DNA from: Candidatus Bathyarchaeota archaeon
GTDB taxonomy: Archaea > Thermoproteota > Bathyarchaeia > Bathyarchaeales > SOJC01
Assembly: GCA_004376645.1 (NCBI GenBank)
Contig: SOJC01000077.1
Coordinates: 1 to 50,374 of the forward strand
Reading direction: 5' to 3'
Length of the DNA stretch: 50,374 nucleotides
Shown here: in pieces, positions 43,336 to 48,837 of the stretch
Numbering within the stretch: the stretch's first letter is position 1
Layout of the letters: each line of letters starts with the position of its first letter
Translations under genes and position numbers: made by a program
The notes under the pieces: model-generated
What the model was told of the DNA's origin: nothing
Seen by the model: the letters and a program-made list of their open reading frames with translations, nothing else
Databases searched by the model: none

Positions 43336-45432
43336 CTATACTGCGTATCTATGTCTATCTTTGAATTCTTGTAACTTTCCAGCGTTCCATCCTCTTATCT
43401 GCTGATAGTATCCTGTGATCCTCGACCAGTACTCTAAGTCGTCGCCCTCTGCTCCGCAACGATTGCACCGAGTCTGTAGATTGCCTTCTACACTATTACA
43501 CTTTCTGCAAATAGTCATGTCTTTTGTCAAGGCGAAATAGGCTGCCAGCGACTGGGTTGCGATACGCTTGATCAACGCCCAAACAGCTTCCGCTGATGGG
43601 TTGTTTTCACCGAGCCAGATATGCATTATAGCGCCTCCTTTTGTTAAGGGGTGGAAACTCGCCTCAACGTTGATTCGGTCTAGCAACGGAATTCCTGCAG
43701 ATGGGCGTACGTGGGAGCTATTGGTGTAGTAGATGCCCCCATTGCCAATGTCTCCTTGAACTATCGCCTTTTCTCCAAAGGCCCTTTGGTCTATGAGGGC
43801 TAATCTGTGGGCACAACTCTCTGCAGGCGTTTGAATGCATCCGAAGCGGTAGCCTGTTTTCTCTGCGTAAGCATTCACTCTATCAACCATGTGTCTAATG
43901 ACTCGCAATCCAAAACTCCAAGTATTGGAGTCTTCATGGAGCTCCTTACCCACGTGAGCCTTCAATAACTCATTCAAGCCTACAAATCCTATATTCAAAA
44001 CTTGTTTATCCAAGTTGAGATAGGGCTCGCCAAGGCAGTCCATGGTGCAGAATGGCAGTATGCCATTGTCCATCCTTTCTCTAATGACTTTTCGCTTGAT
44101 CAGGAGAACTTCCTTAGCAAGATCCATTTTTTCGTCCAGTTTCTCAAAGAGCATGTTGTCATCTCCCTTCGCTTCATAGGCTAGCCTAGGTAAATTGATC
44201 GTTATCACTTGCAGACTTCCCATTCGCATTGCGCCCTTGTGGAAGTCTTTTAGCTCATCGCTGTCAGGTGTGAAAATCAGCCTGCAACACTGACTGTTCA
44301 CAATATCGGGCATGTAGTCGGGGCAGAGGTTGAGGAAGTAGGGAGTTCCAAATTTAGCTGCTAAAGCAGCCACTTTGAGGTATTCATCTTCGAACTTGCC
44401 TAAATATTCCCGTCGTAGTTTCACTTCACATTTAGGGAAGTTGAACATTTTCCCTAAGTAGTCTCCGGCTAAGTAAACATCGAGTATGGCGTTGAAGAAG
44501 GCGTTAGCTTCTTCATAGTAGTCATGGTACGTCTCTGAGGTGGAGACTTTTCCTCCAGGGAGCACAACTGGGATGTCCCAGATGATCTTTGGCACAGCAC
44601 ATTCGAGTGCTATCGAGGAGAAAACGGTTTGACCGCCTCTTGCGACGTACATCTGCGACATTTCGTAAATGAACATCTGAGCCAGTTGTTTCATTTGTTT
44701 ATAGGGCATGTTCCTTACGAATGGGGCTAGCCAAACATTGAAGAAGTCATAGCCTTGTCCGCCAGCCCAATTGGTTTGCGCTGCTGCCAGAGCCTTTGCA
44801 GCGTGGAGAATTGCCACTTCTGGATGCTTTGCAGGACCTGCTACAGCTGTGTGCAAGCCTTGCCCATCGACGATTAATCCCTTCCTCAGGAAGAAACGTA
44901 GATCATGTTCTTGACAGAACGGTCTGATTGCAAAGTATTCGAGATCATGAATATGGATGGCCCCTGAGATGTGGGCATCTGCCAAGTTGGACGGCAGGCA
45001 GTTTAGAAGCGAATATTGATCGAAAATCGTGTCAGCAGCGAGTTTATGTATAGTTTCCGGATTGTGCTGAAGGTTGGCGTTTTCTTTGTCACCAACTTTG
45101 ATGAGTCGGGCTACATCATATAGTGGCAAACCAAGCCTAGTGTACTTTGCTCTTGCATCCTCCAAATTGTTTTCTAGCAAGGCTACACATACAAATTCAC
45201 GAATCAGTGGTGCAGATAAAAAGTTAAGATCTAGTTTCTCTAAGTGACCTGCTGTGTCGCGCGCTATCTTGTCTGCAACTTCAGATGAGAGTTCAGTTTC
45301 CTCAAGCAGAGAGTTTTTGATTCTTTCAACGCTAAAGTCATCAAACATTATTCTTGACGTTCTAACATGTGGAAAGTACTTGAATGAATCGACAACATAT
45401 TCTTGTTTGCTCATGGAAAATCCTCGCGGCAC
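43336..45432 (-). CDS. nrdD: Anaerobic ribonucleoside-triphosphate reductase (class III RNR)
   Basis: HIHDLEY..RPFC, NSQCCRL, VITINLPRLA and a C-terminal zinc ribbon (CRKC...CNRCG). The glycyl-radical motif SRITGYY....WNAGK..EFKDR follows. Confidence 0.9.
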   Translation of the reverse strand: MPRGFSMSKQEYVVDSFKYFPHVRTSRIMFDDFSVERIKNSLLEETELSSEVADKIARDTAGHLEKLDLNFLSAPLIREFVCVALLENNLEDARAKYTRLGLPLYDVARLIKVGDKENANLQHNPETIHKLAADTIFDQYSLLNCLPSNLADAHISGAIHIHDLEYFAIRPFCQEHDLRFFLRKGLIVDGQGLHTAVAGPAKHPEVAILHAAKALAAAQTNWAGGQGYDFFNVWLAPFVRNMPYKQMKQLAQMFIYEMSQMYVARGGQTVFSSIALECAVPKIIWDIPVVLPGGKVSTSETYHDYYEEANAFFNAILDVYLAGDYLGKMFNFPKCEVKLRREYLGKFEDEYLKVAALAAKFGTPYFLNLCPDYMPDIVNSQCCRLIFTPDSDELKDFHKGAMRMGSLQVITINLPRLAYEAKGDDNMLFEKLDEKMDLAKEVLLIKRKVIRERMDNGILPFCTMDCLGEPYLNLDKQVLNIGFVGLNELLKAHVGKELHEDSNTWSFGLRVIRHMVDRVNAYAEKTGYRFGCIQTPAESCAHRLALIDQRAFGEKAIVQGDIGNGGIYYTNSSHVRPSAGIPLLDRINVEASFHPLTKGGAIMHIWLGENNPSAEAVWALIKRIATQSLAAYFALTKDMTICRKCNSVEGNLQTRCNRCGAEGDDLEYWSRITGYYQQIRGWNAGKLQEFKDRHRYAV

Positions 45433-45671
45433 ACCACATTATCGCCACTTAACACTTAGAGTTTTCAACACATAATTAGTAGCAAAAACGATGATTTCAT
45501 GTGCTTCCATTATGGACTTCATTTACGAAAACATGTAAATTTTGCAGTTCTTGCACGTTACTTTAATTTTTTAGAATAATCCATATAAAATCTTGTAGTT
45601 GCACTATCAAAAATTGACACACCGAATGTTTGACAAAAAGTTGTATAAAGCATAGACTGAACTGTTCGAAG

Positions 45672-47672
45672 CTAGCAGAATTCCACTGAAAAAATATTAA
45701 TGGAGCTACAGTTGGGACACTTCAGATGGAGCCCTGAGAAGGTGTTCCCGCAATTGCGGCAACATATAGCAGAAGTATTGTATGCAAAAAAGCCGATATC
45801 ACTTGTCACAAGTTGTCTTGTTTTGGCTAAAAGGGCTTCTGCAGAAGTTGGCTGGTCTGGCAATTGTATCAGTGTCAAGTGTCCACCAAAGGTTAGTTGA
45901 TGTATTCGTTCCTCTAGCAAAAGTTGCTCCTTCTCACCTAATGAAACCCTATTTATGTCACTGTAATGCGGATGATCTTTGCTGCCATGAGTTCTAACCA
46001 CACCCCAGCCATACTTCTCCACATCAAGTTCTGCCAGCCTGTACGCCGCTGTCTTATTTGGAACAATAGCTGATGAAAGCCGGATTCGTGGTTTCTTTGA
46101 TTGTTTTTTGACATAAGCATGGATGTGTTTCAAAATCTTTTCAGTGAGAACGAAAGCTTTTCCATAATCCTCCGGCACATGTCCTTGAGCAACCATTAGT
46201 TCTTCAACAGCTTCGGGGAGGCCTATAGAAGCTATCGTTCGTGAGGCATTTTCTAGCCTAAAGTACTGATCATTGTTTGCCCTTTGGCTGAAGTACAACA
46301 GACGATTCTGTTCCATTCGCCTTTTGATTGCTTGGTATTTTATCTCCAGAGCTTGAGAAGCCATCTTTAGTTGATTGTCTAGAAGTTCAAGGAATTTGTC
46401 TTCATCTCCTTTTGACTCGAAAGAGAGTCTGGGCAGGTTGACAGTAACAACATCAAGATTCCCTGTTCGTTGAACATCCAATTCTTGATCTTGTAGCCAA
46501 TCATCCTTCATTCTTAATCCTGAGGCTGTGTAGGTGGTGTTCTTTTGCTCTTCAGAGCATAGGTTCGCAAAATACACAAGGACGCTTCTCGAAGCGAGTT
46601 CGTGGGCTTTATAGAGTAGAGTCTCTACCTCATCAGTTCCAAGAGATTGTCGCCTAATCTTTGCCACTATCTTTGGATTTCTTAATGGATACGATTCGTT
46701 CTCTTCCCTCAACACTTCTAGCAGGAGGAGGGCTAGATGATTGGCTTCTTCAGCATATCCATCCTCCGTAGAGAGTTCGAGAGTCAGTGTCGTAGGTTCT
46801 TCTCGATTAGTTTGACTCAGGTTTCTGATAAAAAGCCGTAGAAGCTCTCTGACCCTATTAGGAGAGAGGTCTTTTGTGAAGGGAGCAAGATATGTGTTGA
46901 AGTTCTCTAGGCTTTGATATCCTATGATATCATTTGCCGCGTTTCGGATAATATTGGTGGCGAGATTAAGAGCGGCCTCGAGTGTCTTTGGTTTGTGACT
47001 TCGCAGAAAGAAGGACAGATTGTGAATGATTTCGTTTGGCTTCAATATCCATGTGGCGAGGCTATTGAGGTGAAGACTACCTCCCAGATAGGCGTCCGAA
47101 ATTTCACGAGGCAGTATGTTAAGAAGTGTGTATTCTTCCATAACAGCATCTCCAGCAGCTTTCTGGATTGCTCCAATATTCTGTCCTGAAGTTTCGATAA
47201 GGCGGGAGACTTCGTGAACAGGAAGGCCTAATCTTGTGAGGTCATGGCGATAGTCTTCATAATGCTTCTCCAGCAAAATCGTGTTGACGATTTCTCGGAT
47301 GAGAGGGGCTGTTAGGTATTTGGTCTTAAACTGCTGCAAGCGTTTCTCTGTTTCCCGAGCTATCTTCTGAGCTAAGTCCGTAGGTACATTAGCTTCTATG
47401 ACTAAGGACTGTGTGATCCTGTTTCGATCGAATTCCTCTATTGAAAAATGGGAGGTGCGGACAAGCATCTTCCTGCGCTTATAGGTTTGATCTTCTATTT
47501 CATCAGTGAATTTAATTATGTATCGGCCAAGATCTGTGAGACGGTATTTCCTATTTTCCACATCAGGTTCAATCAAATCAGCCTTCAAAAGAAATTTGAG
47601 ATGGTATGCAAAGCGTCCAGCATCACGGGTAGAGTCAAGCTTTAGAGAAATCATCAGCTCGGAGTAGGACAA
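45672..47672 (-). CDS. NrdD-like paralog with N-terminal winged helix, lacking the radical-chemistry residues (putative pseudoenzyme/regulator); the open frame extends upstream to 47804
   Basis: It is collinear with the adjacent NrdD (shared blocks LTAPLIREIV, TRLGLPV.EVSRLI, VVTVNLPRLSFESKGDE). Three substitutions stand out: RPFC becomes KPNE, SQCCRL becomes TASGLR, and the protein stops right after the zinc ribbon with no RxxGY motif. The N-terminus carries an ArsR-like wHTH (IRIQILNLLQEKGSLSYSELMISL...GRFAYHLKFLLKADLIE...YRLTDLG). Confidence 0.8.
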   Translation of the reverse strand: MSYSELMISLKLDSTRDAGRFAYHLKFLLKADLIEPDVENRKYRLTDLGRYIIKFTDEIEDQTYKRRKMLVRTSHFSIEEFDRNRITQSLVIEANVPTDLAQKIARETEKRLQQFKTKYLTAPLIREIVNTILLEKHYEDYRHDLTRLGLPVHEVSRLIETSGQNIGAIQKAAGDAVMEEYTLLNILPREISDAYLGGSLHLNSLATWILKPNEIIHNLSFFLRSHKPKTLEAALNLATNIIRNAANDIIGYQSLENFNTYLAPFTKDLSPNRVRELLRLFIRNLSQTNREEPTTLTLELSTEDGYAEEANHLALLLLEVLREENESYPLRNPKIVAKIRRQSLGTDEVETLLYKAHELASRSVLVYFANLCSEEQKNTTYTASGLRMKDDWLQDQELDVQRTGNLDVVTVNLPRLSFESKGDEDKFLELLDNQLKMASQALEIKYQAIKRRMEQNRLLYFSQRANNDQYFRLENASRTIASIGLPEAVEELMVAQGHVPEDYGKAFVLTEKILKHIHAYVKKQSKKPRIRLSSAIVPNKTAAYRLAELDVEKYGWGVVRTHGSKDHPHYSDINRVSLGEKEQLLLEERIHQLTFGGHLTLIQLPDQPTSAEALLAKTRQLVTSDIGFFAYNTSAICCRNCGNTFSGLHLKCPNCSSINIFSVEFC

Positions 47673-47952
47673 GGACCCTTTCTCTTGAAGCAGGTTAAGG
47701 ATTTGGATACGTATGGAGGCCGAGATAGCCTTTAGTACTCGGATACCAGCTTTGTGGATACGTTGAATTCGCGGGCTAGGCAGAGTGAAACACCTTTTGA
47801 GCGACTATCTCTTTCGAGTCCTTTAGGTTTAAAGGTTAGGGAAGAATGATACTGACAATAGAACGGCAAGGACAATTCTGTTAACAGATTCTTGGCTTAG
47901 TTCACCATTTATAGTGAACTACCTCAGCTTTGCCTGAGCAGGACTGACAATG

Positions 47953-47959
47953 TTTAAAT
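47953..47959 (+). promoter_or_regulatory. TATA-box candidate for tRNA-Leu
   Basis: TTTAAAT ends 28 nt upstream of the mature tRNA 5' end at 47987. Confidence 0.35.
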
Positions 47960-47986
47960 CACAATTGAGGTATTTTGAGCAGATGG

Positions 47987-48086
47987 GCGGCGGTAGCCAA
48001 GCCAGGTCAAAAAGTATATGGCTAAAGGCGAAGGACTCAAGATCCTTTCCCGTAGGGGTTCGCTGGTTCGAATCCGGCCCGCCGCA
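47987..48086 (+). tRNA. tRNA-Leu (anticodon CAA) with an ~15-nt D-loop insertion (putative non-canonical intron)
   Basis: Manual fold: acceptor GCGGCGG/CCGCCGC, anticodon stem AAGGA/TCCTT with loop CTCAAGA, long variable arm TCCCGTAGGGGTTC, T arm GCTGG-TTCGAAT-CCGGC, discriminator A, no encoded CCA. The D region reads GCC-AAGCCAGGTCAAAAAGTATATGGCTAAA-GGC, against the canonical GCC-(G/A)AGCC(T/A)GGTCAAA-GGC. Confidence 0.85.
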
Positions 48087-48201
48087 TCATCTTTCTAGTT
48101 ATTCAAAGCAAATCCTGAGAAATCAGAAATGCAGTTGTTCCTCAAAGGATTCAAGGGTGTGTTATTGCCGTTTGTGAGAATTGGTTCTAGAAGAAGACAT
48201 G

Positions 48202-48837
48202 TTAGAACTTTGCTGATTCTTCGAACTGACCCTTCCTAGTGAAGATTAGAAAATCAACGCCATCACCGCTCATAGAATCTCGGCTTAAGGCTGATTTCAT
48301 AGTGCGGACTACAACATCTTTCACTTCTTGGAGGGTCATACCTTCCCTGTAATTCTCCTCGAGAACTCCTATAGCTATCTCTGCGCCAGTTCCCACAGCA
48401 GCATAGTCATCAGGAATCACAGACCCCAAAATGTCTAGAACATATATCGATGGTCCTTCATCATCAACTCCCCCAATAATCGTCTGTGTAATCAATGGGA
48501 ATAACCGTCTGCCGAAGAGAAGATTAGACATGACTTTCGCAGCGGATCTTATAGATATTCTTCTGTTAATGTCCAGCTTGAACAGATTTGCATAAGCTTC
48601 CACCTCTCGTATTAGATTCTGCATATCGGCAACTAATCCAGCACACGCTGCTCCTATGTGATCTGTGATCTTGAAGATTTTTTTTCCAGCTTTGCTTGTA
48701 ACGAAATATCCATAGGTGACTCGTTTCTCAGAGGCGAGTATCACACCATCAGAATAAACTACACCGAGAGCTGTGGCCCCCGGCATTAAAAAGTATGGGT
48801 GTTGCTGATTGTGATCAATCAAATCCGTCGACTCCAA
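48202..48837 (-). CDS. psmB: Proteasome beta subunit (with propeptide)
   Basis: The propeptide ends ...MPGA, followed by TALGVVYSDGVILASEKR (the catalytic Thr context). Length is 211 aa. Confidence 0.95.
   Translation of the reverse strand: MESTDLIDHNQQHPYFLMPGATALGVVYSDGVILASEKRVTYGYFVTSKAGKKIFKITDHIGAACAGLVADMQNLIREVEAYANLFKLDINRRISIRSAAKVMSNLLFGRRLFPLITQTIIGGVDDEGPSIYVLDILGSVIPDDYAAVGTGAEIAIGVLEENYREGMTLQEVKDVVVRTMKSALSRDSMSGDGVDFLIFTRKGQFEESAKF

Follow-up and report, generated by a model that had tools for sequence, protein, structure and literature searches.

Transcriptional control of ribonucleotide reductase (RNR) genes is largely unknown in archaea, the regulator NrdR covering most bacteria and only some archaeal lineages. 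A locus on contig SOJC01000077.1 of a Candidatus Bathyarchaeota archaeon (assembly GCA_004376645.1; positions 1 to 50,374, referred to in full as the window) raises the question of what a copy of NrdD, the catalytic subunit of class III RNR, may do after losing its radical chemistry. Two NrdD homologues lie there in tandem and collinear on the minus strand, as a reading of the DNA from its letters alone (hereafter, the sequence-only reading) had claimed and as open reading frames (ORFs) and profile matches bear out. The downstream copy is of the active type; the upstream copy is catalytically dead and carries a winged helix at its N-terminus. We think it rather probable that this second protein, a pseudoenzyme, acts on RNR genes as a transcription factor controlled by its own ATP-cone and analogous, not homologous, to NrdR.

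A catalytically dead NrdD fused to a winged helix

The downstream gene (43336..45432, minus strand) encodes a protein of 698 residues that, judged by its motifs, is a bona fide class III NrdD (type 1) and is presumed to be the regulated gene. It scored 517 bits against TIGR02487 (cut-off 326) and matched PF13597 over the whole profile (positions 1-562 of 562, E=8.7e-160). Using as motif definitions the elements named as essential in a study of Prevotella copri NrdD (PMC11226230), we found the full catalytic set: the NxN flap (N118-A-N120), HxHD (residues 157-160), the first-strand cysteine (Cys170), the finger-loop pair C382-C383, TPAES with the TPAE glutamate, the zinc ribbon and Gly674 in SRITGYY. 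The identification of an active-type class III RNR at this position thus holds. A radical-SAM ORF (CxxxCxxC) that might encode the activase NrdG was looked for across the window (1-50374) and none was found.

The upstream gene was taken as 45672..47783 (minus strand, 703 residues, stop codon at 45672-45674), with matches to the Pfam profiles DUF7347, ATP-cone and NRDD, because the orthologues start at 47783-47781 and because the first canonical start listed (TTG, 47672) would remove the first two helices of the DNA-binding domain. The edge at 47804 given in the sequence-only reading is merely the first codon after an upstream stop; the N-termini of the orthologues all read MP.P...HKAG, beginning at the codon that matches 47783-47781. 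The window has CTG there, whereas a 99%-identical (GCA_023127975.1) and a 90%-identical relative have ATG and one locus of the family set described below (L001) has TTG; a Shine-Dalgarno-like AGGTG (47791-47795) stands 8 nucleotides (nt) ahead of this codon. It may be that CTG is a genuine if uncommon start here, that it is a lesion peculiar to this strain, or that the base was misread in sequencing.

Alignment of this paralogue with its active neighbour (29% identity, E=1e-77) upheld the three losses originally claimed. RPFC has become KPNE, the first active-site cysteine being replaced by E251; SQCCRL has become TASGLR, with G422 and L423 in place of the finger-loop cysteine pair; and the protein ends 11 residues past the fourth cysteine of the zinc ribbon, the glycyl-radical domain being absent. 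Further losses were apparent: HIHD reads HLNS (H238-L-N-S), the TPAE glutamate is a lysine, the NxN flap is deleted in a 7-residue gap, and a beta-hairpin of 14-16 residues is missing that corresponds to the specificity-site hairpin in P. copri NrdD. The description of the protein as an allosteric nucleotide-binding scaffold therefore stands in part, in that a non-canonical ATP-cone survives, but the specificity-site hairpin, the NxN flap and HxHD are lost in the window protein. The R-x-x-G-[YF] glycyl-radical motif is absent from all frames of the 239-nt spacer between the two genes, which rules out rescue by a simple frameshift, as had been argued.

To learn how general these losses are, one genome per species (GTDB) was scanned, yielding at least 560 tblastn-confirmed matches of which the best 80 were inspected. 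All of these 80 came from Bathyarchaeia save one evidently mis-binned record, and all 80 lacked the catalytic set. The first cysteine was never kept and the NxN flap was absent; a finger-loop (radical) cysteine persisted in about 17. At the position of the radical glycine stood Ala, Ser, Thr or nothing, the only Gly being found in L067, which lacks both cysteines, and the glycyl-radical motif was not found in 79 of the 80 relatives. Longer relatives (740-775 residues) still hold a fossil of the radical domain in which FSRVSAKHLP aligns with SRITGYY; the family thus displays successive stages of decay, of which the window's subclade of ~700 residues is, on these alignments, the most reduced. 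By the same evidence, catalytic death is complete and old.

Residues 11-103 (47475..47753, minus strand) form an ArsR/SmtB-type winged helix-turn-helix made up of alpha1-alpha3, the recognition helix RDAGRFAYHLKFL, a beta-wing and an alpha5 helix. When the N-terminal 104 residues were modelled alone with AlphaFold2 (AF2), the mean predicted local distance difference test score (pLDDT) was about 90, and the top Foldseek matches were SmtB, CadC, CzrA, HlyU, NolR, BigR and SqrR, with template modelling (TM) scores of 0.65-0.80 to ArsR/SmtB repressors and with the alpha5 helix included in the match. In ArsR/SmtB proteins alpha5 is the dimerisation helix. The winged-helix profile DUF7347 (Pfam) scored 32.6 bits, above its cut-off of 27.6, and the ArsR-like winged helix of the sequence-only reading is vindicated by this match together with the structural ones. 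The domain shares with SmtB, CadC, CzrA, HlyU and BigR the full alpha1-alpha5 fold and an H-L-K-x-L recognition helix, which as RDAGRFAYHLK is near-invariant across the 80 species. It differs from them in falling short of the ArsR profiles (HTH_5, 18.3 bits against 22; NCBIfam NF033788, 22.7 against 55), in having no cysteine at the alpha3 metal-sensing position in its sequence, and in its predicted sensor, which would be the fused ATP-cone and pseudoenzyme, not a metal site.

Next to the winged helix is a divergent ATP-cone (residues 108-190, 47214..47462, minus strand; PF03477, 31.4 bits against a cut-off of 25.8), its fold modelled at pLDDT 60-80. The suggestion of a shared N-terminal regulatory region at the ATP-cone position was correct as to the domain, with the qualification that VRTS[RH] (VRTSH in the window) stands where V-x-K-R-D-G is usual, K-R-D-G being replaced by T-S-H-F. 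The neighbouring active NrdD has the same VRTS variant, and the cone's C-terminal basic/aromatic motif, Y..YRH.LTRLGLP, is preserved.

Residues 191-660 (45804..47213, minus strand) make up an NrdD-type barrel devoid of catalytic and substrate-binding residues, as seen from alignments, Foldseek and the P. copri motifs. PF13597 matched with E=3.9e-64 over profile positions 7-529 of 562 only, and the TIGR02487 score of 223 bits lies under the equivalog cut-off of 326. The full-length AF2 model (pLDDT 84) shows a confident winged helix, a long linker helix, the ATP-cone and the NrdD barrel, and the closest solved structures to the barrel are class III RNRs (Foldseek E values 2e-24 to 1e-17, TM 0.55-0.74), among them the NrdD structures of S. 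thermophilus, P. copri, T4 and T. maritima (E ~1e-24). The C-terminal zinc ribbon lies within residues 661-703 (45675..45803, minus strand), and its four cysteines (C675, C678, C689 and C692) are invariant in an 18-sequence alignment (A2) and conserved to at least 95% among the 80 species. Barrel scaffold and zinc ribbon are thus both retained, as first proposed. In sum, homology to NrdD is clear from PF13597, Foldseek, the common VRTS cone and the zinc ribbon; the dead paralogue differs in being without the radical Gly domain, both active-site cysteines, the NxN flap, the His-Asp of HxHD and the TPAE glutamate, in scoring under the TIGR02487 cut-off, in having gained a winged helix and in being found in aerobic ammonia oxidisers.

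The gene is under purifying selection. The ratio of nonsynonymous to synonymous substitution rates (dN/dS) was 0.10 against the 99%-identical relative and 0.16 against the 90%-identical one; by domain, it was 0.15 for the dead core, 0.10 for the cone and 0.16 for the winged helix. Conservation across the 80 species, scored column by column as the frequency of the commonest residue and then averaged, was 0.83 in the ATP-cone, the most conserved domain, and 0.79 in the winged helix, compared to 0.61 in the barrel and 0.60 in the zinc-ribbon region; columns conserved to at least 95% amounted to 47% of the cone, 40% of the winged helix and 14% of the barrel. The winged helix and the ATP-cone are therefore the most constrained parts of the protein, which is where a regulator needs constraint, and it is this distribution that makes an ATP-cone-controlled transcription factor for RNR genes the best explanation. 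A search with the N-terminal part for stand-alone proteins consisting of winged helix and ATP-cone returned only contig-end or frameshift fragments of the dead-NrdD family itself.

Occurrence in two archaeal classes and gene neighbourhood

A partial homologue labelled Nitrososphaerales led us to a second class of archaea. A thaumarchaeal query matched 473 protein clusters, with members in Nitrosopumilus, Nitrosotenuis, Nitrosopelagicus, Nitrososphaeraceae and Cenarchaeum symbiosum A, and the family is confined to Bathyarchaeia and Nitrososphaeria. In the thaumarchaeal homologues the parts follow one another as in the window protein: first the winged helix (SGKFAYHLRKL), then the cone (YVRTS...YLT.SLIRE...YR.KLARLGLP), a barrel without the cysteines, the zinc ribbon and the protein end. 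They are 29% identical to the window protein overall and about 65% identical in the cone. Ammonia oxidisers are obligate aerobes, to which an oxygen-sensitive glycyl-radical enzyme would be useless; their possession of the family independently argues for a non-catalytic role.

In public databases, the family is labelled hypothetical, ArsR regulator or, wrongly, anaerobic RNR, the thaumarchaeal homologues being annotated as oxygen-sensitive ribonucleoside-triphosphate reductase or anaerobic RNR. The thaumarchaeal records are often split into two or more ORFs (L172 8001-10060, from Cenarchaeum symbiosum A; L173, L177, L178 and L179), probably through frameshifts in long-read assemblies combined with misannotation. 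Literature on winged-helix NrdD, pseudoenzyme RNR, DUF7347 and thaumarchaeal or bathyarchaeal NrdD, including papers on RNR phylogeny and databases, yielded no description of the family, in keeping with the sequence-only reading, to which no such characterised protein was known.

The strongest functional evidence comes from the gene neighbourhood. Among the 62 informative loci of Bathyarchaeia, 30 have nrdD directly downstream on the same strand. The nrdD genes concerned are of three subtypes, one resembling that of the window (75-94% identical), one 41-44% identical and preceded by a glutaredoxin-like gene (PF00462), and one 31% identical with a canonical K-R-D-G cone. In Nitrososphaeria, the gene directly downstream is that of a class II, B12-dependent RNR (NrdJ) in seven of the seven loci with downstream sequence, as identified by TIGR02504 (NrdJ_Z; the three proteins scanned scored 535-723 bits, the cut-off being 400). 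Three NrdD subtypes and a class II NrdJ occupy the same position; RNRs that are not orthologous have thus refilled the slot with no change of layout, and the neighbourhood follows RNR function, not ancestry. The most often conserved neighbour is pyrB, present in 49 of 80 loci; it converges on the RNR gene in two thaumarchaeal loci, as it does in the window.

Variations on this layout were also seen. In the loci with the second nrdD subtype (class B; for instance L028 8480-8785), a glutaredoxin-like gene of ~101 residues (PF00462, C-x-R-C) abuts the nrdD start, which fits a redoxin-dependent NrdD subtype; no such gene precedes the type-1 nrdD of the window. Two loci show remnants of lost genes: L085 (last 760 nt) has an intact glutaredoxin-nrdD operon and only the last ~40 codons of the dead-NrdD gene, and in L010 (8118-8400) the promoter and leader of nrdD remain and nrdD itself is gone. 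A few Bathyarchaeal loci keep the promoter with another small ORF or nothing behind it. In one lineage, a conserved Cys-rich ORF of 85 residues (CxxC...CxxC) with no Pfam match takes the place of nrdD behind this promoter (L015 2902-3159, L029 8545-8802, L035 5201-5458, L038 5364-5621).

Upstream of the dead-NrdD gene, on the plus strand of the window, lies a tRNA-Leu(CAA)-like gene (47987-48086) with the acceptor stem GCGGCGG/CCGCCGC, the anticodon loop CTCAAGA, a long variable arm, a normal T-arm and an insertion of ~14 nt in the D-loop region that is probably a non-canonical archaeal intron. Missed by ARAGORN and Rfam, the same tRNA is found divergently upstream in L001, L005 and L006.

Promoters and candidate operators

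The 239-nt spacer ahead of nrdD contains a promoter module and candidate operator region (45521..45619, minus strand) that was delineated by phylogenetic footprinting and occurs once in the window. Its boxes are TGTCAATTT (45611-45619), CTACAAGATTTTATATGG (45581-45598) and TCTAAAAAATTAAAG (~45560-45574), followed by an inverted repeat, ATTTAC-N8-GTAAAT (45521-45540, minus strand), found in the locus class of the window. The consensus reads GTGTCAATTT, ~13 nt, (C/T)TACAGAATTTTATAC, 6-9 nt, TCTAAAAAATTAA. The module is near-invariant while the rest of the spacer diverges, as is the recognition helix of the protein, and in Bathyarchaeia one and the same conserved module precedes all three NrdD subtypes. 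Of 100 non-redundant sites, 83 had its first box, TGTNAATY, at the constant position -22..-24, compared with 1.8 expected; about 68 of the 87 metagenome matches to the promoter pattern fell on the same junction between dead-NrdD gene and nrdD; and TATACA-type palindromes were concentrated at the module (20 of 30 matches in 886 kb). Part of the module is probably a B recognition element (BRE) and TATA box.

The dead-NrdD gene has a promoter block of its own, CCCTAACCTTTAAAC (47827..47841, minus strand; BRE/TATA-like), located 44-58 nt before the start codon, conserved ahead of orthologues 42-90% identical and occurring a single time in the 50-kb window.

Other candidate elements were tried and set aside. 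The nrdD module does not behave as a generic promoter for stable RNA, most tRNA genes in the loci being without it and the tRNA-linked copies being insertions or duplications in the same locus. A palindrome between the tRNA gene and the winged-helix gene, TAGTTCAC-N8-GTGAACTA (47898-47921), with perfect arms around TATAAAT and unique in the window, was absent from all 80 orthologous loci. As for an autoregulation motif, some class-B loci show a similar ACAGATTTTTATAGGATAC and nothing convincing was seen in the window's class. Boxes resembling GGTGTCAAT upstream of thaumarchaeal nrdJ recall the Bathyarchaeal GTGTCAATTT, which, given that such an 8-mer is frequent by chance and that the loci are related, is a hint only of a cross-class operator. 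NrdR boxes are tandem 16-bp palindromes at RNR promoters with the consensus ACACWAWATWTWGTGT; searching the window with this consensus, and allowing up to three mismatches, we found no match near either RNR-family gene.

tRNA genes (Ser-GCT, Leu-TAA, Gly, Arg and Pro) have been inserted repeatedly behind the conserved nrdD promoter (L090, L118, L101, L152, L100, L098, L105), sometimes with duplication of the promoter and of the 5' end of the glutaredoxin gene, and the site looks like a hotspot of insertion and rearrangement. Directly ahead of nrdD runs a leader of ~130 nt (45433-45560, minus strand) with blocks, ACCATAG and TGAAAAYTCTAAG, conserved among type-1 loci and absent in L125, L131, L040 and L046. 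An Rfam search of 45300-48300 gave no match, hence no known riboswitch in the leader, which might serve as a second promoter or act at the RNA level as a regulatory element.

Proposed function and its alternatives

On the reading that we favour, the ArsR/SmtB-type winged helix would bind DNA at RNR promoters, in the window at the module in the spacer before nrdD, and the ATP-cone would bind adenine nucleotides (ATP/dATP). Nucleotide binding would alter the oligomeric state or the arrangement of domains and so switch DNA binding, as in NrdR and RNRs, with the dead barrel and zinc ribbon serving as a scaffold for dimerisation and signal transmission. The outcome would be feedback control of deoxynucleoside triphosphate (dNTP) synthesis, the role of NrdR performed with a non-homologous DNA-binding domain. 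The sequence-only reading had proposed the same function, and comparative evidence now supports it, the family being much wider and more tightly tied to RNR genes of different classes than the letters alone could show. Four points of the scheme are inferred: that the protein binds DNA, which sequence is its operator, that the non-canonical cone binds nucleotides, and in which direction regulation works.

Bacterial NrdR, made of a zinc ribbon and an ATP-cone, has in common with the family the pairing of an ATP-cone with a DNA-binding module, an association with RNR genes of several classes (here, three NrdD subtypes and NrdJ) and a like predicted logic, that of adenine-nucleotide-dependent control of RNR transcription, possibly via oligomeric state (PMC9110341, PMC12176259). 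In contrast to NrdR, which binds DNA by its N-terminal zinc ribbon, the dead-NrdD family is predicted to do so by its winged helix; it carries a dead barrel of ~500 residues and an NrdD-type zinc ribbon, its only one, at the C-terminus; its cone is without the K-R motif; the RNR genes of the window have no palindrome resembling an NrdR box close by; and as a whole the protein is not homologous to NrdR. The accompanying statement of the sequence-only reading that archaea generally lack NrdR has to be corrected, since some archaea do have it (PMC9110341, PMC2795772). Carried further, and more tentatively, the proposal would make this ancient RNR pseudoenzyme the missing archaeal counterpart of NrdR in both classes: it would have lost its chemistry before the classes diverged, gained an ArsR-type domain and come to set, through its own ATP-cone, the transcription of whichever RNR class is used by the cell. 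Switching might then proceed by nucleotide-driven oligomerisation across two independent dimer interfaces, those of the ArsR alpha1/alpha5 helices and of the NrdD core.

Several observations weigh against a role in RNR regulation. The cone lacks the Lys-Arg pair that contacts triphosphates in characterised ATP-cones (PMC11226230); some 470 residues of dead barrel are held under purifying selection, more than a dimerisation scaffold seems to require; and the window copy starts with CTG. The nrdD module may be mostly core promoter (BRE/TATA), not operator, copies of it also driving inserted tRNA genes, and no motif common to the dead-NrdD and nrdD promoters was found in the window. Finally, 32 of the 62 informative Bathyarchaeal loci are without an RNR gene within 2.5-6 kb, and because 30 of these 32 have pyrB immediately behind the dead-NrdD gene, adjacency to RNR could partly reflect ancestral synteny. 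The sequence-only reading, which saw in the protein a regulator of the adjacent nrdD, was thus right to place it upstream of an RNR, which it is whatever the class or subtype, but too narrow for loci of this kind.

Pressed to its end, the argument from synteny would make the protein a transcription or chromatin factor with targets other than RNR genes, standing beside them by inheritance of an old gene order (tRNA, dead-NrdD gene, RNR, pyrB, pyrI). The pyrB gene is indeed the neighbour conserved most often and follows the dead-NrdD gene directly in the 30 loci just mentioned; the divergent upstream tRNA gene is also widely conserved; and the dead-NrdD gene is intact where nrdD has been lost from the locus (L010, L015, L029, L035 and L038). 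We nonetheless regard this alternative as unlikely, for the slot has been refilled by three NrdD subtypes and NrdJ with the arrangement (and, in Bathyarchaeia, the promoter module) kept, which passive synteny would hardly accomplish across two classes, and the ATP-cone that would act as sensor is a kind of domain found elsewhere in RNRs and NrdR (PMC9110341).

The constraint on the barrel might instead point to a non-catalytic subunit acting post-translationally, which by binding to the active RNR, or to partners such as the activase or a redoxin, would tune dNTP synthesis or determine where it takes place, its winged helix tethering the complex to DNA or serving as a protein-interaction module. 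In keeping with this, the whole barrel and zinc ribbon are under purifying selection (core dN/dS 0.15, four invariant cysteines), the segment APLIRE...TRLGLP is invariant between dead and active paralogues, the gene adjoins RNR genes, and the NrdD dimer has only one monomer active at a time (PMC11226230). In Nitrososphaeria, however, the neighbour is the class II enzyme NrdJ and no NrdD was seen in the loci, so that heterodimerisation through an NrdD interface cannot be the general function. The specificity-site hairpin, which sits at the dimer interface, is deleted in the window's subclade, an adjacent RNR is missing from half of the Bathyarchaeal loci, and it is the recognition helix, part of a canonical DNA-binding fold, that is most strongly constrained. 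A subunit of this kind is in our judgment quite unlikely.

The same purifying selection on the core, the ~14% of its columns with conservation of at least 95% (among them EEYTLLN.LP..I.DAH..G and NLPR) and a cone without the canonical K-R pair might also be accounted for by a barrel that has retained or gained a non-radical enzymatic or ligand-binding activity, the protein then being a one-component regulator that senses some metabolite other than adenine nucleotides. This we consider improbable, given that every known determinant of substrate and effector binding is gone or variable, the NxN flap, the His-Asp of HxHD and the TPAE glutamate throughout the family and the specificity-site hairpin in the window's subclade, and that conservation peaks in the ATP-cone and not in the core. 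That we are dealing with a pseudogene in decay, or with a normal nrdD distorted by misassembly or an artefactual frameshift, as its CTG start (ATG or TTG in relatives) and the many fragmentary or frameshift-split database entries might suggest, is already effectively refuted by an intact frame of 703 codons, the dN/dS of 0.10 against the 99%-identical relative, the same architecture and losses in 80 of 80 species representatives and in metagenomes from many sites, and the lack of a glycyl-radical motif in any downstream frame: it is a working gene.

A transcription factor for RNR genes, to return to the reading that we prefer, would have its nearest known kin in kind among the ATP-cone regulators and the enzyme-derived one-component regulators. 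Archaeal ThiR and RbkR are regulators of the latter sort. As in these and in NrtR, BirA and NadR, the dead-NrdD protein joins a DNA-binding domain to a domain that derives from a pathway enzyme and is often inactive; it differs in that the sensor derives from the very enzyme thought to be regulated, is far larger and comes with a separate ATP-cone. NrtR, for its part, combines a Nudix-like domain with a winged helix (PMC2330246).

New here are the occurrence of the family in Nitrososphaeria, its adjacency to NrdJ and the presence of three NrdD subtypes behind one promoter module. The finding corrects a widespread misannotation as anaerobic or oxygen-sensitive RNR, given even to proteins of obligate aerobes, by which metabolic inferences from metagenomes are distorted. 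It also provides a candidate RNR regulator for two very abundant groups, the Bathyarchaeia of sediments and the ammonia-oxidising Nitrososphaeria, and one that is directly testable, cultured Nitrosopumilus and Nitrososphaera strains carrying homologues next to nrdJ. If the proposal is true, this would be the first case of an RNR turned into a transcription factor and a striking example of pseudoenzyme evolution, a whole radical enzyme preserved over hundreds of millions of years as sensor or scaffold in the regulation of its own kind; in ammonia oxidisers and sediment archaea, which abound globally, it would be a master regulator of dNTP supply.

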